A stretch of DNA of 64,000 nucleotides from assembly GCA_027488975.1 (NCBI GenBank), contig JAIYAQ010000021.1, forward strand, positions 12,455 to 76,454, read 5' to 3'. The stretch is from Cyanobium sp. E1_MAG_00006 (GTDB lineage: Bacteria; Cyanobacteriota; Cyanobacteriia; PCC-6307; Cyanobiaceae). Below the pieces are notes generated by a model. That model made no database searches. It worked only from the letters and a program-made list of their open reading frames with translations, and was not told the DNA's origin. This document shows, piece by piece, positions 3,574-13,156 of this stretch (its first letter is position 1; the number at the start of each line of letters is the position of its first letter). A program made the translations under genes and the position numbers.

Positions 3574-4479
3574 TCACTCCTCGGGCCCGATGCCCTGCGC
3601 AGTCCGGTCGTGCTCCAGCAGCCGCTCCACCAGGAGCTTGAGCAGCAACGACACGATTGCCACGCCGCCCAGAACGGTGGCGGCACCGAAGGCCAGCTCG
3701 GTGTTGTACTGCTTGTAGGCGTCCTCCACAAACAGCGGCAGGGTCTGGGTTTCGCCGCGGATGTTGCCGCTCACCACCGACACAGCCCCGAATTCTCCGA
3801 GAGCCCTGGCGGCGGTGAGGATCAGGCCGTAGAGAGCCGCCCAGCGCACCGAGGGGAGGGTCACCTTCCAGAACACCTGCCAGTCATTGGCCCCGAGCGT
3901 CTTGGCGGCTTCCTCCTGGTCCCAGCCCTCCTCCTCGAGCAGCGGAATCACCTCCCTAGCCATGAACGGGAAGGTCACGATGATCGTGGCCAGCACGATG
4001 CCAGGGGTGGAGAAGATGATCTTCAGGCCGAGGGCGTTCAGCAGCCCGGCGAACAGCCCGTTGTTGGGGCTGTAGAGCAGCACCAGCATTAGACCCACCA
4101 CCACCGGCGAGATCGAGAACGGCAGGTCGATCACGCTGAGCAGCAGGGCCTTGCCGGGGAACTGGCGCCGGGCAATGGCAGTGGCCGCCGCGAGGCCGAA
4201 GATGCAGTTAGCTGGCACCACGATGGCCGCATCCAGCAGCGTGAGGCGCAGGGCCGACATCAGATCGGGCGACTGGAAGTTCTCCAGGAACGGGGCCAGG
4301 CCCTTGGCGAACGCCTGAACCACAACGGCAATGGCCGGCAGCAGGATGATCACGCCCACGTAGAGGCACGAGACCAGCACGATCAGGGCGGGGCCCAGGC
4401 TTTTCAGGCGTGCCCGGAAGGTGGGTTTGACCCAGGCGGGCGGCTGAACATCCTCGAGTGGCGGGGTGACGAAAGTCAT
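3574..4479 (-). CDS. cysW: sulfate ABC transporter permease CysW
   Basis: IDLPFSISPVVVGL, EEAAKTLGA (EAA loop), ARALGEFGAV, TQTLPLFVEDAYKQY. Confidence 0.95.
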   Translation of the reverse strand: MTFVTPPLEDVQPPAWVKPTFRARLKSLGPALIVLVSCLYVGVIILLPAIAVVVQAFAKGLAPFLENFQSPDLMSALRLTLLDAAIVVPANCIFGLAAATAIARRQFPGKALLLSVIDLPFSISPVVVGLMLVLLYSPNNGLFAGLLNALGLKIIFSTPGIVLATIIVTFPFMAREVIPLLEEEGWDQEEAAKTLGANDWQVFWKVTLPSVRWAALYGLILTAARALGEFGAVSVVSGNIRGETQTLPLFVEDAYKQYNTELAFGAATVLGGVAIVSLLLKLLVERLLEHDRTAQGIGPEE

Positions 4480-4522
4480 GGCAACACCGGCGGCAGAGAG
4501 CTGAGCGGGAGAGCGGAGCGCA

Positions 4523-5377
4523 TCAGGTGGCCTCGGCGCCCTGGTAGCGCTGACCCCAGACCTGCAGGAGGTTGATCACCAGCAGACTCACCAGTGCGAA
4601 CAGCAGCATCACGGTGCCGATCACCGTGGCGGCCGGCAGGTCGTATTCCTCCAGCTTCTGCACGATCAGCGTGGGCGTGATCAGATCGCGGAAGGGCACG
4701 TTGCTGGAGATCATGATCACGGATCCGTACTCCCCCACAGCGCGGCTGTAACCCTGGGCGACGCCCGAGAGAATCGCCGGCAGCAGTTGCGGCAGGACCA
4801 CTCGGAAGAAGGTCTGGCTCTGGCTCGCGCCGAGGCACCACGACGCCTCCTCCTGCTCCTTCTCGAGGGAACGGAGCACCGGCTCCACGGTGCGCACCAC
4901 GAAGGGAAGGGAGATGAACACCATCGCCACGGCAACCCCGAAGGAGGTGAAGGCCACCTTCACGCCGAACAACTGCAGGATCGGCCGGCCCAGCCAGCCC
5001 TCTTCGCTGTAAACGGCCGTGAGCGCCAGGCCCGCCACGGCGGTGGGGAGGGCAAAAGGCAGATCGATCAGCGAATCCAGCAGCCGCTGGCCAGGGAAGC
5101 GGCAACGGATGAGTGCCCAGGCAATCACCAGGCCAAACAGACCATTGATCAGGCTGGCGATCAGGGCCAGTCCGAAACTGATCTTGTAGGTGGCCACAGC
5201 CTCGGGGGATGTGGCGATCTCCCAGAAGTCCGCCGGCCCGACGTGGAAGGCCTTGAGCAACATGCCGCCGAGCGGCAGAAAGAGCATCAGGCTGAGATAC
5301 AACCAGGTGATGCGCCACGACCAGCTGGGCAGCTGGAGCCTGGGCAAGCGCCGCAGGCGGGAGAGAACAGCGGCCAT
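4523..5377 (-). CDS. cysT: sulfate ABC transporter permease CysT (CysU)
   Basis: DLPFALPTAVAGL, LPFVVRTVEPVL, EEASWCLGAS, GEYGSVIMIS; ATG at 5377 chosen, ORF extends to 5458. Confidence 0.95.
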   Translation of the reverse strand: MAAVLSRLRRLPRLQLPSWSWRITWLYLSLMLFLPLGGMLLKAFHVGPADFWEIATSPEAVATYKISFGLALIASLINGLFGLVIAWALIRCRFPGQRLLDSLIDLPFALPTAVAGLALTAVYSEEGWLGRPILQLFGVKVAFTSFGVAVAMVFISLPFVVRTVEPVLRSLEKEQEEASWCLGASQSQTFFRVVLPQLLPAILSGVAQGYSRAVGEYGSVIMISSNVPFRDLITPTLIVQKLEEYDLPAATVIGTVMLLFALVSLLVINLLQVWGQRYQGAEAT

Positions 5378-5569
5378 TGCGCTGGTCGTACCGGAGTAAC
5401 CCGAACGTACCACCAGATCAGAGTCAATACAACGGTAATCCACCGGGTTTATGGCCATAGCATGCCGCTAGCGCTTGCCGCCAACGGAGCAGACGGATCA
5501 GGGAGCTGGAGCAGCCCGAGCTGACCCCATCCCTACGTCTGGTCAAAATGGATCAAACGATCAGCCGCC

Positions 5570-6592
5570 ATGGGCATCCGGGTCGCCAACGTCAGTAAGC
5601 GCTTCGGTGACTTCCACGCCGTGGATGAAGTCAGCGTTGATGTGGAGAGCGGCTCCCTGGTGGCCCTGCTGGGCCCATCCGGTTCCGGCAAGAGCACCCT
5701 GCTGCGCCTGATCGCCGGCCTTGAGGAGATCGACAGCGGCCGCATCTGGATCACGGGTGAAGAAGCCACCGGCCGCACCGTTCAGGACCGCCAGGTGGGC
5801 TTCGTGTTCCAACACTTCGCCCTGTTCAAGCACCGCACGGTGCGCCAGAACGTGGCCTTCGGCCTGGAGCTGCGCCGCTGGAAACGGGAGGCGATCCGTC
5901 GCCGCGTCGACGAACTGCTGGACCTGGTGCAGCTGCAGGGCCTCGGCAACCGCTACCCCTCCCAGCTCTCCGGTGGCCAGCGGCAGCGGGTGGCCCTGGC
6001 CCGGGCGCTGGCGGTGCAACCGCGGGTGCTGCTGCTGGACGAACCCTTCAGCGCCCTCGACGCCAAGGTGCGCAAGGAACTGCGGGCCTGGCTGCGCCAG
6101 CTCCACGATGAGATGCACGTCACCACCGTGATCGTGACCCACGACCAGGAGGAGGCGATGGAGGTGGCCGACAAGATCGTGGTGATGAACCACGGCAGGG
6201 TGGAGCAGATCGGCACCCCGGCTGAGATCTATGACCACCCGGCCACCCCCTTCGTGATGGGCTTCATCGGGGCGGTCAACGTGTTGCCCCAGGGGGCGAT
6301 CCAGGTGGCCAGTGGCACCGGCGCCGGCACTCCGGCGGAAGCGCAGTTGTTCGTACGCCCCCACGATGTGGAGGTGTTCACCGAGCCCCAGGCCGGCACC
6401 GTTGCCGTGGAGCTGCGCCGCCTCAGCCACATGGGCCGCGATCTGCAGGCCGAGCTGGTGATGGCCGATGGCCAGGTGATCACAGCCCAGATCCCACGCG
6501 AGCAGATGGCGTTCGACAGCGTCAGCCCCGGCAGCCTCCTCCACGTGCGCAGCCGCGAGGCCCGCGCCTTCACGCCGGACTACAGCATCTGA
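5570..6592 (+). CDS. cysA: sulfate ABC transporter ATP-binding protein CysA
   Basis: Walker [44 protein letters not shown]-like C-terminus. Confidence 0.95.
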
Positions 6593-6668
6593 ACCGGCGC
6601 GCAAGCCCCAAGGGCACATCACCGATCGGGAATAGCCTTTATGTTGCCGCCAGTCCTCGGAGCGGCTG

Positions 6669-7058
6669 TTGTTCTCGGCCACCTTTCGCTATGCCCTGAT
6701 CAGCCTGCTGGAGATCGCCGGCTCGGAGGACGGTGTGAACACGGCCTTGATCGCCCAGCGCCACAACATTCCCGGCACGTATCTCGCCAATGTGCTGCGT
6801 GATCTGCGCCGGCTGGGAGTGATCGTGAGCCAGAAGGGGCGCCGCGGCGGCTACCTGCTGGCCAAACCTCCGGAGCAGATCGATCTGCTGGCCATGCACC
6901 GTGGACTGGCTGGATCCAACGATCCAGCGGGATCGAAGCTGCAGGCACCCAGCGGCGCTGAAGTGTGGCTCCAGGCGATCGAGAACCGCTGGCGCCAGGA
7001 GCTGGCGAACACCAGCCTGCTGGACGTGCAACAGTTCGTACAAAAAGGTACGGAATGA
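6669..7058 (+). CDS. Rrf2-family transcriptional regulator (Cys-free)
   Basis: RYAL..L..IA...IA.R.NIP..YL..VL..LRR.G.I.S.KG..GGY.LAKPPEQI; no cysteines. Confidence 0.85.
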   Translation: MFSATFRYALISLLEIAGSEDGVNTALIAQRHNIPGTYLANVLRDLRRLGVIVSQKGRRGGYLLAKPPEQIDLLAMHRGLAGSNDPAGSKLQAPSGAEVWLQAIENRWRQELANTSLLDVQQFVQKGTE

Positions 7059-7151
7059 CTCGTCAATCCGCAGGCATCACAAGCGATGCGGCGCCAATCG
7101 TGAGCAGTTTTCACTGAAGATCGCGGCCAGAGCTGGCATCAGGAGGCCAGC

Positions 7152-7181
7152 AAAAAGCCAGCCACTGGAGGGCGGCTGGCT
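7152..7181 (-). terminator. Rho-independent terminator for the cysR transcript
   Basis: 8-bp stem AGCCAGCC/GGCTGGCT with an A-run on the + strand side (U-tract on the minus strand). Confidence 0.6.
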
Positions 7182-7224
7182 GGAGGAAGATCCACGAAGG
7201 ATCGAATGGATGGGTCTCAGGTGG

Positions 7225-7305
7225 TCAGGCCTGCGTGGTCTCTGACTGCAACATTCTCGCCCTGTGGGTACAGGCGAGGATGGCGATGGCGATCCAGAGC
7301 AACAT
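7225..7305 (-). CDS. 26-aa hydrophobic micropeptide (not in ORF track)
   Basis: MLLWIAIAILACTHRARMLQSETTQA*; ATG 2 nt after the stop of the upstream 58-aa ORF, upstream of the terminator. Confidence 0.4.
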   Translation of the reverse strand: MLLWIAIAILACTHRARMLQSETTQA

Positions 7306-7307
7306 GA

Positions 7308-7484
7308 TCAGCCCCCACGCCCCTGAGGCTTGTGGGCAACAGTTGCTGAATCAACCTCCAGCCAGTAAGCAGCCAGGCGACCATCGCAGCGGAACTGAGC
7401 CAGGGTCAGGGGGCCCTGGTGATGCAGCAGCTGGCCGTTGCGAAACTGCAGCGTATAACGAGGTGCAGAAGATGAGTGGGTCAT
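7308..7484 (-). CDS. 58-aa microprotein ending in Gly-Gly, ThiS/MoaD-like N-terminus (not in ORF track)
   Basis: MTHSSSAPRYTLQFRNGQLLHHQGPLTLAQFRCDGRLAAYWLEVDSATVAHKPQGRGG*; RBS GGAGGAG-ACG-ATG directly after the cysR stop. Confidence 0.6.
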   Translation of the reverse strand: MTHSSSAPRYTLQFRNGQLLHHQGPLTLAQFRCDGRLAAYWLEVDSATVAHKPQGRGG

Positions 7485-7495
7485 CGTCTCCTCCC

Positions 7496-8074
7496 TCAGG
7501 CAAAAACGGCGGAGATCGCGGTGGAGGGGATAAACAGATCGTCCTTACTGATCTGTTGCAGCACACCCTCACCCTTGTAACGGTTGAGCATCTTGGTCAC
7601 CGTCACCCGTGTCAGGCCGCAGAGATCAGCCAGTGATTTGTGGGTGAGGTTCATGTCCTTGAGCGAGAGGCGATAGCCCCTGGAACTCACCTGGCCGAAA
7701 CGCCGGCCGATCCAGGCCAGCAGGGTCAGCAGTCGCTGGTCGGCCGAGCGGATGCGGTTGAGTTGAAGAATCTCCTCGAGGTTCTGGATCTGCTGGAGCA
7801 GCAGCCGCTCCACATCGGAAGCGGCCGGCTGGAACTGCTCCACGATCACGGTGGAGATGCACTGGATCTCCACGGGCTTGAGGGCGGAGTAGGCGGCGGT
7901 GACCCAGTCACCGGGCCCCCAGACCCCGAGAACGATGAACTCTCCATCCTCGTCCCATGTGGAGGTGCGGATGTAGCCGTCCTGAATCTTCCAGTTCAGG
8001 GTTTCCTGCAGCACGTCACCGGGCTGCAGGGTGAGGCGGAGCGGTTGCTGTGTGGCGGTGGTGGCGGCAGGCAT
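7496..8074 (-). CDS. cysR: Crp/Fnr-family regulator, CysR-like
   Basis: Crp fold (G.F..LG.WGPGD) and HTH LTHKSLADLCGLTRVTVTKML; location inside a sulfate ABC cluster as known for Synechococcus CysR. Confidence 0.75.
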   Translation of the reverse strand: MPAATTATQQPLRLTLQPGDVLQETLNWKIQDGYIRTSTWDEDGEFIVLGVWGPGDWVTAAYSALKPVEIQCISTVIVEQFQPAASDVERLLLQQIQNLEEILQLNRIRSADQRLLTLLAWIGRRFGQVSSRGYRLSLKDMNLTHKSLADLCGLTRVTVTKMLNRYKGEGVLQQISKDDLFIPSTAISAVFA

Positions 8075-8250
8075 GGCGTGTCTGGCAGATGGATGTCATG
8101 GCTTGAAGGAAGGCCAGCGAAGCGCTGGCCGTAAGCACTCGGCGACAACAGCTCGTACGAGAGCCCGCGAGATGGCCCAAACTATAGCACTTATGCCCAA
8201 CCGGGAAACCGGATTATGTCGGCAGACCCGGATCTCTCGCCTGCCTCCGC

Positions 8251-8682
8251 TCAGATGAAGTACATGGCCTGTGGTTGCCGCAGGGCATCACGCCGCTCGA
8301 TCAGCCGCTCCAGGCTGGTGCCCTCAAGGGCCTGCAGCCGGGCCCGATCCAGCTCGCCAGCAAAGGCGTGCAGCGCCTCGAACTCCGGCGTCTGTCGCCC
8401 AACGGCATCACGACTGGCGCCATCCCCTTCCAAGCAGCTCACAACCTCGGACACGAGGATCTCGCCAGGGGGTCGGGTGAGCTGATATCCACCCTTCGGA
8501 CCGCGGATACTGCGCAGAATCCCGCCGCGCCGAAGGCTGGTGAGCATCTGCTCCAGGTAGCGATCGGGAATGCCCTGGCGCGTGGCGATCTCGCCCACCT
8601 GCAGCACCCCGCCACTGCTGTAAAGGCCGGCCAGCTCGATCAGAGCCACCAGGCCGTATTTGGTCTTGGAGCTGAAGGCCAC
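8251..8682 (-). CDS. Rrf2-family regulator, CymR-like
   Basis: FSSKTKYGLVALIELA...EIATRQGIPDRYLEQML..LRRGG.LRSIRGPKGGY.L.RPP; no 3-Cys Fe-S motif; C-terminus ...QAMYFI; GTG start at 8682. Confidence 0.85.
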   Translation of the reverse strand: MAFSSKTKYGLVALIELAGLYSSGGVLQVGEIATRQGIPDRYLEQMLTSLRRGGILRSIRGPKGGYQLTRPPGEILVSEVVSCLEGDGASRDAVGRQTPEFEALHAFAGELDRARLQALEGTSLERLIERRDALRQPQAMYFI

Positions 8683-8831
8683 TGGCTTACCGGAGATTGA
8701 TCTCAGACCGGATTGTGACAGCGGGAGCAGGGCCCGAAGGAGGCACCCGACTTTTCCGATGATGTAAACGGGAATACGCTGCAAGGGCCCTTCAGATCCG
8801 TACCTTGCCCCGAGTATCCAATCGAATTTAC

Positions 8832-9878
8832 GTGGCATCCCTTTCCACCCTGTTGCCCCGCCGGCTCGGTGCGGGCCTGGCCCTCACCGCCCTGGCAGCG
8901 AGCAGCGGCTCGGTCCTGCTGGCCGCCCAGGCCCAGGCCCAGGCGAATAAGCAGCAGCAGATTCTGCTGGTGAGCTACGCCGTCACCAAGGCGGCCTACG
9001 ACAAGATCATTCCTCTCTTCCAGGCCGACTGGAAGAAGAAGACCGGTCAGACCGTGGTCATCAAGACCAGCTATGGCGGCTCCGGCTCCCAGACCCGCGC
9101 TGTGATCGATGGCCTTGAGGCCGATGTGGTCGGCCTGGCCATGGCCGCCGACGTCACCAAGATCGAGAAGGCCGGCCTGATCCAGCCCGGCTGGGCCGAA
9201 GAGCTGCCCAACGACTCGGTGGCGACCAACTCCACCGTGGCTTTCTTCGTGCGCCCGGGCAACCCCAAGAAGATCAACAGCTGGAAAGATCTCGACAACA
9301 AGGACGTTGACGTGGTCACCGCCAATCCCAAGACCTCCGGTGGCGCCCGCTGGAACTTCCTGGGCCTGTGGGGCTCAGTGACCGAGACCGGTGGTTCGGA
9401 AGCCGATGCCAGGAAGTACATCGCCTCGGTGCTGCGCAACGTGGATGTGCTGCCCAAGGACGCCCGCGAAGCCACCGACACCTTCGTGAAGCGGCGCAAG
9501 GGTGATGTGCTGCTGAACTGGGAGACCGAAGCGATCCTGGCCAAGAAGAACGGCGAGTGGACTGTTCCCTACAAGCTCCCCAGCCCCAACGTGCTGACAG
9601 AAATGCCGATCGCCGTGGTCGACAAGAACGTGGACAAGCGCGGCACCCGCAAGGTGAGCGAAGCGTTCGCCAGGTTCCTGTTCTCGCCTGCGGCCCAGAG
9701 GGCCTTCGTGGATAACGGCTTCCGCCCGGTGACACCGGAAGGCAAGAAGTATGCCGGCACCCGCTTCCAGCAGGTGAAGTTCTACCGGGTGGGCGATTTC
9801 GGTGGCTGGCCCGGGGTCGACCGGAAGTTCTTCGGCAAGGGCGGCGTCTGGGATCAGATCTTCTCCAAGAACCGCTGA
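8832..9878 (+). CDS. sbpA: sulfate-binding periplasmic protein (copy 1)
   Basis: LLVSYAVTKAAYD, SYGGSGSQTRAVIDGLEADVV, NPKTSGGARWNFL, NWETEA; AQA-type signal peptide; start uncertain. Confidence 0.92.
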   Translation: MASLSTLLPRRLGAGLALTALAASSGSVLLAAQAQAQANKQQQILLVSYAVTKAAYDKIIPLFQADWKKKTGQTVVIKTSYGGSGSQTRAVIDGLEADVVGLAMAADVTKIEKAGLIQPGWAEELPNDSVATNSTVAFFVRPGNPKKINSWKDLDNKDVDVVTANPKTSGGARWNFLGLWGSVTETGGSEADARKYIASVLRNVDVLPKDAREATDTFVKRRKGDVLLNWETEAILAKKNGEWTVPYKLPSPNVLTEMPIAVVDKNVDKRGTRKVSEAFARFLFSPAAQRAFVDNGFRPVTPEGKKYAGTRFQQVKFYRVGDFGGWPGVDRKFFGKGGVWDQIFSKNR

Positions 9879-9916
9879 TCCCCGACTCCGACGGAGGGAC
9901 ACCACACCAGAAGCCC

Positions 9917-9947
9917 AGGCCTCGGCGGTCTCCGCCGGGGCCTTTTT
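9917..9947 (+). terminator. Rho-independent terminator after sbpA
   Basis: 12-bp stem AGGCCTCGGCGG-TCT-CCGCCGGGGCCT (one G-U pair) followed by TTTT. Confidence 0.85.
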
Positions 9948-9972
9948 GCAGCAGAAGCTTTGCAGCAGAAGC
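9945..9972. repeat. 14-bp tandem duplication
   Basis: TTTGCAGCAGAAGC x2, exact. Confidence 0.85.
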
Positions 9973-10019
9973 ACCCGCCCGCCGCGGTAGGCTTATCTCT
10001 TGTTACACATCAGATTACC

Positions 10020-11093
10020 GTGGTATCCAGCCCCGCCGGTCGTGTCAGTCGGTTTGCATCAAGTGCTGTGCTGGCCTCCACCGCCTGCATCGCCCTTGCC
10101 GGCTTGACGGGCTGCGGCACGCCAAAGGCCACGACAGAAGCGGGGAATAGCAGCAGTTCCCCGCAGCAGCTCCTGCTGGTGAGCTACGCCGTCACCAAAG
10201 CGGCCTACGACCGCATCCTGCCCGCCTTCGAAGCGGACTGGAAGGCCAGAACGGGGCAGAGCGTGAGCGTGAAGACCAGTTACGGCGGCTCCGGCTCCCA
10301 GACCCGTGCCGTGATCGATGGACTGGAGGCCGATGTGGTGGGGCTTGCCCTGGGCGGCGATGTGCTGAAGCTCCAGAAGGCCGGCCTGATCGAGGCTGGC
10401 TGGGATAAAGAGCTGCCGCACGACTCCACCATCACCCACTCGGTGGTGGCCCTGATCACCCGCGAGGGCAATCCCAAGGGCATCCGAACCTGGAAGGATC
10501 TCGGCAAGGCAGGCGTTTCGGTGGTGACGGCCAACCCCAAGACCTCCGGTGGCGCCCGCTGGAATTTCCTGGCGCTGTGGGGATCAGCCAGCCGTGATGG
10601 CGGCAGTGAGGCTCAGGCCCGTGCCTTTGTGGGCCAGGTGTACGGCAATGTTGAGAGCCTGCCGCGGGATGCACGCGAGGCTTCGGATGTGTTCCTCAAG
10701 CGCGGCCAGGGGGATGTGCTGATGAACTACGAGAACGAGGCGATCCAGGCGCGCAAGAGCGGCGAGCTGACGCAATCCTTCCTGGTGCCGGAGCAGAACA
10801 TCCGCATCGATGCCCCGATCGCCGTGGTGGACAGGAATGTGGACAAGCACGGCACCCGCAAGGCCGCCGAAGCGCTGGCGACGTTCCTGCAGAGTGAGAA
10901 GGCTCAGACCATCTTCGCGGAGGAGGGATTCCGGCCGGTGAACGAGACCGTGTGGACCAAGGTCAAGGATCGTTTCGCTCCGGTGCCGCGGCTGTTCAGC
11001 GTGGCCGATTTCGGTGGCTGGGAGAAGGTCAACGCCACCTTCTTCGGCGACGGCGGCCTCTGGGATCAACTGTTCCGCCAGCGCCGGGGCTGA
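10020..11093 (+). CDS. sbp: sulfate/thiosulfate-binding lipoprotein (Sbp copy 2)
   Basis: same Sbp motifs as copy 1; lipobox LAGLTG-C; NYENEA; start uncertain. Confidence 0.9.
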   Translation: MVSSPAGRVSRFASSAVLASTACIALAGLTGCGTPKATTEAGNSSSSPQQLLLVSYAVTKAAYDRILPAFEADWKARTGQSVSVKTSYGGSGSQTRAVIDGLEADVVGLALGGDVLKLQKAGLIEAGWDKELPHDSTITHSVVALITREGNPKGIRTWKDLGKAGVSVVTANPKTSGGARWNFLALWGSASRDGGSEAQARAFVGQVYGNVESLPRDAREASDVFLKRGQGDVLMNYENEAIQARKSGELTQSFLVPEQNIRIDAPIAVVDRNVDKHGTRKAAEALATFLQSEKAQTIFAEEGFRPVNETVWTKVKDRFAPVPRLFSVADFGGWEKVNATFFGDGGLWDQLFRQRRG

Positions 11094-11899
11094 TGTGTGA
11101 ACTGCTGGCCCTCAGCGCCAATACCCCCACAGACATGCGCTTCTCCTTCCGCGGCCTGGCGCGGCGCGGCGGCGCGACGGGGGACCATGGCGACGGCTGG
11201 GGGCTGGCCAGCTTCGACCCCCAGGGGGGTGGGCTGAACATCTATCGCGAGCAGACACCCGCCGCCTTCTCACCGGTGGCGGCCCATCTCTCCGAACTGG
11301 ACCTGAAATCACTCGTGTCGCTGGCGCACATCCGCAAAGCCACCCAGGGCGTGGTGACCCTGGAGAACTGCCATCCCTTCCATCGCCAGTGGCTGGGTCA
11401 GGACTGGGTGTTCGCCCACAACGGCGACATCCGCACCGACATTCCCGGGGGCGATCACTACCGCCCGATCGGCGACACCGACAGCGAAGCCGCCTTCTGC
11501 TGGATGCTCAACCAGCTCAGCGAGCGATTCACTGCGCCGACAGCAGCTCCGCCCGATGGACATGCCCTGTTCCCGCTGCTGAACACCTACTCAGCGCACC
11601 TCGCCGGCCATGGCATCTTCAACTGCCTGATCAGCAACGGTGAGTGGCTCTACGCCTATTGCGGCACCAAGCTGCACACGATCACCCGCCGGGCGCCATT
11701 CACCTCGGCCACCCTGGCGGATGACGATGTGACGGTGGACTTCTCGACGCTGACCACCATTCGTGACGTGGTGACGATCGTGAGCACCGAGCCGCTCACC
11801 AGCAATGAAGCCTGGCGCCCGCTCGATGTGGGTGAGGCCCTGCTGCTGCAGCGCGGTGAGGTGGTGGAACGGCGTCTGGCCCCTCAGAGCGGGCTCTGA
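11093..11899 (+). CDS. class II glutamine amidotransferase (YafJ-like Ntn hydrolase)
   Basis: starts MCELL (Cys2 nucleophile), DHGDGWG, AHIRKATQG, NCHPF, FAHNG, GDTDSE; TGATG overlap with the sbp2 stop. Confidence 0.9.
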   Translation: MCELLALSANTPTDMRFSFRGLARRGGATGDHGDGWGLASFDPQGGGLNIYREQTPAAFSPVAAHLSELDLKSLVSLAHIRKATQGVVTLENCHPFHRQWLGQDWVFAHNGDIRTDIPGGDHYRPIGDTDSEAAFCWMLNQLSERFTAPTAAPPDGHALFPLLNTYSAHLAGHGIFNCLISNGEWLYAYCGTKLHTITRRAPFTSATLADDDVTVDFSTLTTIRDVVTIVSTEPLTSNEAWRPLDVGEALLLQRGEVVERRLAPQSGL

Positions 11900-11967
11900 C
11901 CCTGGAGACCGGCCAGACCACCCCGCAGGACGTACGCATCGCGATGGCCGAGCCTCAAAGCGAGAGC

Positions 11968-12144
11968 TCAGGGCTCAAGAGGTGGCGTCTGCTGACTGAT
12001 CATCCAGTTTGTGGCCGCCTGCTGGGTGTGCCAGGCCTGGAGCAACTGCTTGGCCAGGCTGCGCAGGGCATCGGCGTCGGCAGTGGCCTCGATGGCCCGG
12101 TTGAAGCGCTCGATTTCGAAGTGCTGGCTGAGGCTCAGTTCCAT
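11968..12144 (-). CDS. nblA: NblA-like phycobilisome degradation adaptor
   Basis: MELSLSQHFEIERF...LAKQLLQAW..QQAATNWMI aligns by eye with NblA LSLEQQF.I..F...L..L..Q....A....; 58 aa, two helices. Confidence 0.6.
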   Translation of the reverse strand: MELSLSQHFEIERFNRAIEATADADALRSLAKQLLQAWHTQQAATNWMISQQTPPLEP

Positions 12145-12180
12145 GTCCGCTTGCATCCGAATACTCCCTTGACTGGCGGG

Positions 12181-12221
12181 AATGTATCGGGATGGCACTT
12201 TGCTGGCGTAGCGATCAGCAC
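12181..12221 (-). promoter_or_regulatory. putative NtcA-activated (class II) promoter of the nblA-like gene
   Basis: minus strand reads GTG-N8-TAC (12221-12208), 21 nt, then TACATT (TAN3T, 12186-12181). Confidence 0.55.
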
Positions 12222-12481: not shown

Positions 12482-12919
12482 TCAGGCCTCCACCTGCACG
12501 CTTACCGTGGTGGCGGTGTTGGCTTTGGGAGCCGTCACCGTGAGCAGGCCATCGCGATAGCGGGCCTGCAGCTGATCACGATCAATCGGAGCCGGGAAGC
12601 GGAAGCTGCGGCTCCAGGTGCCGTAGCGGAACTCGCTCACCAAGGGGCGAGCCCCAACGTCGCTGGCGTCGGCCGCGGCCTCTTCAGGCTGGCTGCGCTG
12701 GTTGCGGCGCTCGGCGCTGATCACCAGGGTGCGGTCGGTGGCCTTGACATCGATGGCGCCCTTGTCGACGCCGGGGAGCTCCAGCACCACCGCGTAAGCC
12801 TCGGCAGTTTCATGCACTTCAGCGGCGGGCACCCGCTCGGCGGTCTGCAGCTGCTGGCTCAGTTGCTGCTCGATGCGATCGAACAGTTCAAACGGAGAGG
12901 AGGTGCGCAGGGTCAACAT
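12482..12919 (-). CDS. hspA: Hsp20/alpha-crystallin small heat-shock protein
   Basis: PAAEVHET..AY.V.LELPGV...IDV....L.ISAERR...SEFRYG.WSRSF.FP...D......YRDGLL.V..PK. Confidence 0.9.
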   Translation of the reverse strand: MLTLRTSSPFELFDRIEQQLSQQLQTAERVPAAEVHETAEAYAVVLELPGVDKGAIDVKATDRTLVISAERRNQRSQPEEAAADASDVGARPLVSEFRYGTWSRSFRFPAPIDRDQLQARYRDGLLTVTAPKANTATTVSVQVEA

Positions 12920-13156
12920 GGTTTGCATGGCGAAGGATGGATGTCGGGGTCGTCGTTCGCCCCCGCTGCAGCCATGCTCAGCCGGCTATCCCGGGGCGGG
13001 GATCGTGGCAGCCGTACCGATCGTTTCGGCCCTCACCACCGCGGTACGGCAGACCGATCCAAAGGGTGAGGGCAGCCGAATCAACCCAGTAGCCACACCG
13101 CTGAACCGTGGCCAGGGTGAGGGCCACCCCCACACCCGCCTCCGCGGCCACCGCCC

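Follow-up and report, generated by a model that had tools for sequence, protein, structure and literature searches.

How much of a densely packed sulfate locus belongs to a single control system? The question is posed by a 64,000-nucleotide stretch of Cyanobium sp. E1_MAG_00006 (GenBank assembly GCA_027488975.1, contig JAIYAQ010000021.1), hereafter the window, in which positions 3574–12221 carry the genes of a sulfate ATP-binding cassette (ABC) transporter together with three regulator genes, a YafJ-type amidohydrolase gene, a microprotein gene and an NblA-like gene. The original prediction had read this region as one undescribed sulfur-starvation module. It was largely right in seeing a conserved sulfate island rich in regulators, one of them CymR-like, and mistaken in including the NblA-like gene. 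Freshwater Cyanobium-type picocyanobacteria have a standard accessory island for sulfate acquisition, and window positions 3574–11899 are a copy of it. On balance, and with modest confidence, we favour a reading in which this island is governed by a CysR activator and by a CymR-type Rrf2 repressor (Rrf2B) that docks with CysK, and in which the amidohydrolase recovers cysteine.

The window corresponds to C17:12455–76454 of genome G000, a 2.7-Mb genome of Cyanobium type with 65% GC. Its nearest named homologues are from Cyanobium sp. CACIAM 14, Synechococcaceae WB8 and Cyanobium sp. Morenito 9A2. Genes were identified with Pfam and NCBIfam models, and the transporter subunits were judged against the NCBI curated cut-offs. 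Two comparison sets were used: 24 genomes of the same genus plus 16 from other cyanobacterial families, and 80 cysT loci from 80 species-level freshwater picocyanobacterial genomes, searched with the island proteins. Counts out of 51 refer to those of the 80 loci whose flank on the relevant side extends for at least 8 kb.

CysT, CysW, CysA and both Sbp proteins all score above their curated NCBIfam cut-offs. The permease genes cysW (3574–4479, minus strand; TIGR02140 CysW equivalog, 343.1 bits versus a cut-off of 329.1) and cysT (4523–5458, minus strand; TIGR02139 CysT equivalog, 366.8 versus 246.1) are divergent from cysA (5570–6592, plus strand), which encodes the ATPase with a TOBE-like C-terminus (TIGR00968, 420 bits versus 342.75; ABC_tran and TOBE_3). 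Periplasmic sulfate-binding proteins are encoded by sbp1 (8805–9878, plus strand; TIGR00971, 291 bits versus 155.5) and its paralogue sbp2 (9960–11093, plus strand; 280 bits against the same cut-off), tandem duplicates with 70–84% nucleotide identity. This arrangement had been called from the letters alone, as had the Crp-type CysR, the two Rrf2 proteins and the YafJ-type amidohydrolase, and the Pfam and NCBIfam models confirmed all of it. A further frame overlapping cysT (4476–5318) has no Pfam or NCBIfam match and was discarded as spurious. A genome search revealed no cysT, cysW, sbp or cysR in G000 beyond the island copies, and a search of the same genome for a SulP-family transporter found none. 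CysTWA with its two Sbp proteins is the sole recognisable sulfate uptake system of G000.

The island is organized into four units: cysT–cysW; the divergent cysA–Rrf2A; Rrf2B–cysR–microprotein; and sbp1/sbp2–GATase_4, which is divergent from Rrf2B. The third unit is closed by a strong terminator-like hairpin on the minus strand (7156–7181; a 10-pair stem with 7 GC pairs, followed by TTTTT). A weaker terminator-like hairpin (9927–9942) lies between sbp1 and sbp2; it may uncouple expression of sbp2–GATase_4 from that of sbp1, or act as an attenuator of sbp1. GC content across the region ranges from 0.60 to 0.68, and the composition profile gave no sign of recent foreign origin.

Is this arrangement a peculiarity of one genome? 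The gene order, minus the NblA-like gene, recurs in dozens of species, far above chance. The consensus over the 80 loci reads GATase_4–sbp–(sbp); Rrf2B–cysR–microprotein–(rhodanese/cysK)–(Rrf2A)–cysA; cysT–cysW, with cysW adjoining cysT in 78/80. Both cysA and sbp are found at 48/51 loci (cysA at 73/80 overall), Rrf2B and cysR at 46/51 each, and GATase_4, downstream of sbp, at 45/51. The microprotein gene occurs at 24/51 loci (40/80 overall), Rrf2A at 18/51 (16–18 related loci), a rhodanese gene at 8/51, cysK at 3/51, and hsp20 and a response-regulator gene at 1/51 each; the NblA-like gene is found at 0/51. The synteny that had been proposed therefore held at roughly 90% of loci for Rrf2B, cysR, sbp and GATase_4, at about half for the microprotein and at about a third for Rrf2A, and failed for the NblA-like gene. 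Given these recurrence counts, the island is real and standard for the group.

Within the genus, cysT is carried by 8/25 genomes, G000 included, and the island is therefore accessory. G010 and G016 have the same set (cysW–cysT, Rrf2A, cysR–Rrf2B, sbp–GATase_4), G011 has the order ChrA, GATase_4, sbp, sbp; Rrf2B, cysR, CysK-like, and G012 retains a decayed remnant. In Cyanobium sp. CACIAM 14 the order of the window is exactly mirrored (sbp; Rrf2B–cysR; Rrf2A–cysA; cysT–cysW), and Morenito 9A2 reads GATase_4–sbp–sbp; Rrf2B–cysR–67-aa open reading frame (ORF)–rhodanese ... cysA; cysT–cysW. Several cultured strains share this architecture: Cyanobium gracile UHCC 0139 and 0281, Vulcanococcus limneticus LL, Synechococcus sp. 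BO 8801 and Morenito 9A2. Several public metagenome-assembled genome (MAG) records whose cys islands are plainly picocyanobacterial bear names such as Chitinophaga pinensis, Bordetella parapertussis and Pimelobacter simplex (the oddly named records include L035, L040, L046, L054, L066, L089 and L098, with cysT 74–84% identical); these unrelated names look like deposition labelling errors.

The island can also be lost as a block. The closest relative, G005, lacks window positions 3611–10806 through a clean 7.2-kb deletion that takes out cysW, most of sbp2 and everything between; the junction shows TCG(A)TGC microhomology (L027, G005:C254, about 6417). There, the response-regulator gene that borders the island on the left is joined to the final ~95 codons of sbp2, followed by GATase_4, 95% identical to that of G000, and by the NblA-like gene. 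G005 is in effect a naturally occurring knockout strain for the entire block of uptake and regulator genes. Neither cysT nor a SulP-family transporter was found in G005, G012 and G006, which are 92–99% complete.

What might the regulators of this island sense? Two of the three belong to the Rrf2 family. Rrf2B (8251–8682, minus strand; PF02082, 94 bits) is CymR-like and ends in MYFI. Rrf2A (6669–7058, plus strand; PF02082, 76.9 bits) lies downstream of cysA, a position it also holds in CACIAM 14, and is without the C-terminal Ile tail; its best PDB match is Bacillus subtilis CymR (2Y75, E = 7.7e-9). Rrf2B contains a single, conserved Cys and Rrf2A none, so neither can hold the Fe–S cluster of IscR, NsrR or RirA. 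These three identities were rejected for both proteins (0–1 Cys versus three cluster ligands; IscR, 68 bits versus 208).

A CymR–CysK cysteine sensor of B. subtilis and Staphylococcus aureus was reportedly described by Tanous et al. in 2008. Rrf2B resembles CymR (PDB 2Y75, 3T8R) in its Rrf2 fold without an Fe–S cluster, its C-terminal aromatic–aromatic–Ile tail, its association with cysteine and sulfur genes and its palindromic operator, here a candidate; it differs in belonging to another phylum, in its score against the CymR model (85 bits versus 195) and in standing alongside a Crp-type CysR. Insertion of a C-terminal Ile into the CysK active site is a published feature of CysK partners, CymR included (PMC12895370, PMC4961446). 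An M[YF][YF]I C-terminus is kept in 119/120 database homologues of Rrf2B and in 60/61 island copies with a readable end. Residues 1–143 of Rrf2B align to the entire CymR model NF047409 (positions 1–139 of 139, 85.3 bits); when the MYFI tail was removed or replaced, the alignment ended at model position 129 with 79.8 bits (−5.5 bits). Since the model reaches its last position only with the tail, the curated CymR family ends in a similar motif. A PDB search with the C-terminal 42 residues of Rrf2B gave no match.

Tailed Rrf2 proteins also occur inside sulfate-ABC clusters of two other cyanobacterial families. The G027 cluster reads cysR; Rrf2 .. cysT–cysW. In G034 (L031, G034:C56, 4280–12317) the order is MsrB; tailed Rrf2–NIL–CysK-like–cysW–cysT–sbp–tail-less Rrf2; cysA, the second Rrf2 being tail-less like Rrf2A, so that both Rrf2 types share one sulfate cluster with a CysK-type gene. 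The CysK gene of G000 lies at C22:167577–168509.

The intergenic region between Rrf2B and sbp1 is a candidate site of control. It holds three blocks conserved among G000, G010, G016 and CACIAM 14: box A, GATTGTGACAGC (8711–8722), a palindrome, and a third block at the sbp start. Box A is single-copy; elsewhere in the window it does not recur above chance. The palindromic operator candidate, TTTCCGAT-N6-ACGGGAA (8753–8774), corresponds to the form TTCCCGAT-N7-ATCGGGAA that is perfect in G016, has one mismatch in G010 and is present in CACIAM 14. With up to two mismatches allowed, the island site is the only one in the whole G000 genome and the single best; with up to three, a genome-wide scan gave 19 sites versus 22 in a reversed-sequence control, hence no enrichment. 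The B. subtilis CymR box, which we take to contain ATMGGAATT, resembles ATCGGGAAT here. These features mark a candidate dedicated operator at the Rrf2B/sbp promoter.

The divergent cysT/cysA promoter region (5459–5569, 111 bp) has different conserved blocks. An inverted repeat, GACCGT-N22-ACGGT, is common to G014, CACIAM 14 and Morenito 9A2 (L029, L032, L033) and degenerate in the window; a block just 5′ of the cysA ATG is shared with CACIAM 14. The inverted repeat is a candidate second operator, possibly for CysR or Rrf2A.

Taken together, the lack of Fe–S cysteines, the M[YF][YF]I tail and the unique conserved palindrome lend support to a CymR-like role for Rrf2B, as had been suggested; its score of 85 bits, against a cut-off of 195, speaks the other way.

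CysR, the third regulator, has reportedly been known since 1991. In the window, cysR (7496–8074, minus strand) encodes a Crp-type protein (HTH_Crp_2, 37 bits; Crp, 26.5 bits) with orthologues 84–86% identical at the same position in G010 and G016. Its best NCBIfam match is PtrA, at 59 bits versus a cut-off of 300. Identity to the cluster-embedded CysR of the Synechococcus elongatus-like G028 is 37%, and to another Crp-like gene product there 43%. A CysTWA–Sbp system with CysR is described for S. elongatus in the passage of PMC11420160 that cites Laudenbach & Grossman 1991, and the role of CysR in this species is treated in PMC11420160 and PMC12016511. The S. elongatus PCC 7942 cluster resembles the island in combining CysT, CysW, CysA and Sbp with a Crp-type CysR inside the cluster and in its high-affinity sulfate uptake role; rhodanese and ChrA/SrpC-type genes, a further likeness, lie near the islands of the window's relatives. 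In G028, by contrast, the order is cysT–ORF81 (NIL-like)–cysR–cysW, without an Rrf2 gene in the cluster. Two Rrf2 regulators and a YafJ-type amidohydrolase encoded in the sbp operon are additions of the window relative to the S. elongatus cluster, and its small protein is a different one.

That small protein is a 58-aa microprotein (7308–7484, minus strand) whose ORF begins 11 bp after cysR, directly downstream. Homologues lie 3′ of cysR in G010, G016 and 40/80 loci, at least 40 species; their common core is YTLxFxNGxLLRHQDxLxxAQFRSDxRLA, flanked by variable ends. Entropy is highest at third codon positions (0.58/0.50/1.19 for positions 1/2/3) and the median ratio of nonsynonymous to synonymous substitution rates (dN/dS) is about 0.19, patterns that indicate a real protein under purifying selection. 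Two microproteins had originally been proposed; this one is real, and the second could not be identified. An AlphaFold2 (AF2) model shows a β–β–α–β arrangement, with 33 residues at a predicted local distance difference test (pLDDT) score of at least 90. The protein has no Pfam match, and its model no match to PDB folds at E ≤ 0.001. A ThiS/MoaD/CysO-type carrier ending in Gly–Gly was rejected: this end is confined to the window copy, homologues end in VYG, SSL, QIE, FQD and others, and no fold matched. Homology to S. elongatus ORF81 was likewise rejected, since ORF81 in G028 is a different sequence upstream of cysR, judged NIL-like by eye; a search for the microprotein in G028 gave no match.

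The remaining member of the sbp unit, GATase_4 (11093–11899, plus strand), is a full-length YafJ-type class II N-terminal nucleophile (Ntn) amidohydrolase (PF13230, 302 bits versus a cut-off of 23). Its ATG overlaps the sbp2 stop (cTGATG), and the two genes are probably translationally coupled. The protein starts MCELL (Met–Cys), with the N-terminal Cys nucleophile expected of an Ntn hydrolase, and matches YafJ/PA1307 (1TE5, function not known) at E = 6e-70, a likeness that covers the whole-length GATase_4 domain and the nucleophile. EgtC identity (TIGR03442) was rejected at 36 bits versus 218.65. The location of GATase_4 directly after sbp in 45/51 loci suggests that its function is linked to sulfate limitation. 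Yeast Dug3 cleaves the γ-glutamyl bond of glutathione and is induced by sulfur limitation. By analogy with Dug3 and EgtC, the amidohydrolase most likely recovers cysteine from glutathione-like compounds.

The neighbours of GATase_4 elsewhere bring up a different signal. A gene of the chromate-transporter family, ChrA, lies directly beside GATase_4 in G011 and G014 and ~2.5 kb away in Morenito 9A2 (L028 5227–6591, L029 11389–12723, L033 2974–4317); the window has none. ChrA beside GATase_4 recalls the sulfur-regulated srpC of S. elongatus. If these flanking genes are taken at face value, the Rrf2 proteins could answer oxidative or thiol stress, chromate or other toxic oxyanions entering through the sulfate system, with the amidohydrolase acting in detoxification. 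Neighbouring peroxiredoxin (G011) and MsrB (G034) genes would fit, as would the redox sensitivity of S. aureus CymR (PDB 3T8T is titled 'oxidized form') and the one conserved Cys kept in Rrf2B. However, Rrf2A has no Cys at all, the Rrf2B tail matches the CysK-docking type, and uptake genes are present in nearly all loci whereas ChrA, peroxiredoxin and MsrB genes accompany only some. We regard a non-sulfur signal as quite improbable.

How, then, could the parts work together? In the sulfur-based reading that we favour, CysR would be a sulfur-limitation activator, as in S. elongatus, and Rrf2B a CymR-type repressor whose C-terminal ...MYFI would dock into O-acetylserine sulfhydrylase (CysK). In sulfur-replete cells, the Rrf2B–CysK complex would occupy the palindrome between Rrf2B and sbp and repress both the sbp–amidohydrolase operon and the Rrf2B–cysR–microprotein operon. 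Under sulfur starvation, O-acetylserine would build up, CysK would be released and both operons would be de-repressed. The tail-less Rrf2A and the 58-aa protein may be accessory modulators. The amidohydrolase, co-translated with sbp2, would cleave a γ-glutamyl or amide bond of a sulfur metabolite such as glutathione to yield cysteine. A more far-reaching form, which we hold only tentatively and consider rather doubtful, makes the M[YF][YF]I Rrf2 the cyanobacterial counterpart of CymR, reading O-acetylserine/cysteine via CysK and forming with CysR and the ~60-aa protein the sulfur-status sensor of cyanobacteria, and makes the YafJ-type enzyme a starvation glutathione/γ-glutamyl-thiol amidohydrolase.

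Several points weigh against the favoured reading. The regulatory and enzymatic roles are all inferred from sequence. Rrf2B falls far under the CymR family cut-off, and because of this score is not filed as a CymR member. The palindrome is imperfect in the window, with two mismatches and a spacing of N6. Rrf2B is missing from about 10% of islands (G001, G009, G013, G014, G020), in which CysR seemingly suffices. What the amidohydrolase acts on is a guess: no function is known for 1TE5, the nearest relative with a solved structure, and a literature search on YafJ found no functional paper. G000 moreover encodes a second MYFI-tailed Rrf2 (C9:35314–35823; L016 8312–8752), 60% identical to Rrf2B, which may exert some of the control assigned here to Rrf2B. 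It sits between amino-acid permease and CNNM/CBS genes, with an ammonium transporter and TrkH also among its neighbours and zero sulfur genes. An island-specific paralogue clade of Rrf2B apart from a 'core' copy gains no backing from a tree, which does not separate island copies from the others and places the C9 copy on a long branch.

Such a tree is also what would be expected if the MYFI Rrf2 were a global regulator of cysteine metabolism in picocyanobacteria, normally single-copy, that resides in the island without specifically controlling it. G010, G012 and G016 have no MYFI-type Rrf2 other than the island copy, and a homologue is present in all genomes of the genus but one and in all 16 other cyanobacterial families sampled. 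In genomes without cysTW the gene lies elsewhere, sometimes ~5 kb from SulP (G023:C1 342293–348978; G024:C2 331669–338338). Yet the genome's only good palindrome lies in Rrf2B's own divergent promoter with sbp, as expected of a regulator that acts locally or on itself, Rrf2B, cysR and sbp are adjacent in 46/51 loci, and the second copy on C9 leaves room for a division of labour in G000. We therefore consider the global role unlikely, and retain Rrf2B as the probable local repressor of the island.

Does control extend to the NblA-like gene beyond GATase_4? The ORF exists (11968–12198, minus strand; probable start 12156) and belongs to a family with 1–5 copies in every genome of the genus; a search of the 16 other cyanobacterial families found none. 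No match to Pfam NblA (PF04485) was obtained even at E up to 1, so that the predicted ORF stood and its assignment to NblA drew no support from Pfam. A profile of eight members reached NblA 1OJH at a marginal E = 0.059 over the first 24 residues only. The AF2 model is a helix–loop–helix (helices 9–24 and 28–56, pLDDT 83), for which Foldseek returned no match. In picocyanobacteria, nblA genes are multiple and highly divergent, and general profiles miss them (PMC12695635). The window gene resembles these in its ~60-aa length, helix–loop–helix, multiple copies, N-terminal motif like IELSLxQxF and failure against the general profile; it differs in having no Pfam match, E = 0.059 to 1OJH and cys linkage in zero relatives. 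An Hsp20 gene (12482–12928) follows the NblA-like gene and is island-linked in 1/80 loci.

The original prediction had joined the whole 8.6 kb, this gene included, into one sulfur-starvation regulon that would couple sulfate uptake and cysteine sensing to the scavenging of organic sulfur and the breakdown of phycobilisomes. The gene lies 68 bp from GATase_4, and CGGGAAT...CGGGAT upstream of it resembles one arm of the Rrf2B/sbp palindrome. In S. elongatus, cysR deletion lowers nblA transcription under sulfate limitation, a link in trans (PMC12016511). Against these points, CGGGAAT is not over-represented in the window (9 sites versus 5.8 expected) and is not supported as a regulon-wide motif, and the full palindrome and box A each occur once. 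Three of the six clustered CGGGAAT copies are in coding DNA, two of those being homologous Rrf2 helix codons. Window scans found no motif common to all island units or to the NblA-like promoter beyond this half-site resemblance. Among the relatives, the NblA-like gene is at 0/80 cysT loci, G010, G016 and G013 carry their copies on different contigs and in different surroundings (in G013 beside apparent CO2-hydration protein and fasciclin-domain genes, judged by eye from translations), and G005 lost the cys genes and kept it. For these reasons the gene is a bystander, a chance neighbour outside the island; antenna recycling is no part of the island, and the single-regulon view is very improbable indeed.

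How much of the island is new? Already published are CysTWA–Sbp with CysR and its freshwater-accessory status (PMC9361551, PMC11420160). Cabello-Yeves et al. 2022 (PMC9361551) give, in their sulfur passages, a patchy and freshwater-only distribution of CysWT/CysPA in picocyanobacteria (38/67 freshwater strains, 0 marine), matching the transporter and the distribution seen here, with cysT in 8/25 genomes of the genus. Those passages catalogue transporters and rhodaneses and leave Rrf2 regulators, microprotein, amidohydrolase and operator unmentioned. A literature search for Rrf2/CymR in cyanobacterial sulfur control found no paper, within incomplete coverage that does not prove novelty, and public annotation of Rrf2B homologues reads only 'Rrf2 family transcriptional regulator'. 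The claim of an undescribed combination therefore survives for the Rrf2 layer, the microprotein and the amidohydrolase link, on which no paper was found, and falls for the transporter, CysR and freshwater distribution.

In the literature searched, neither the CysR signal nor cyanobacterial sulfur-status sensing is described. The island offers a candidate sensor, a CymR-like Rrf2 with a CysK-docking-type tail conserved across cyanobacteria, and a defined candidate operator. Two further parts, both unstudied, are a microprotein that evolves under purifying selection and, at ~90% of loci, a YafJ-type amidohydrolase in the sbp operon. If the more far-reaching form of the model is true, the uncharacterised YafJ family would gain its first function. 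The architecture is present in cultured strains, and the model is therefore open to bench testing. These findings bear on freshwater adaptation, as the island is the only recognisable sulfate uptake of G000, yet is deleted as a block in close relatives.

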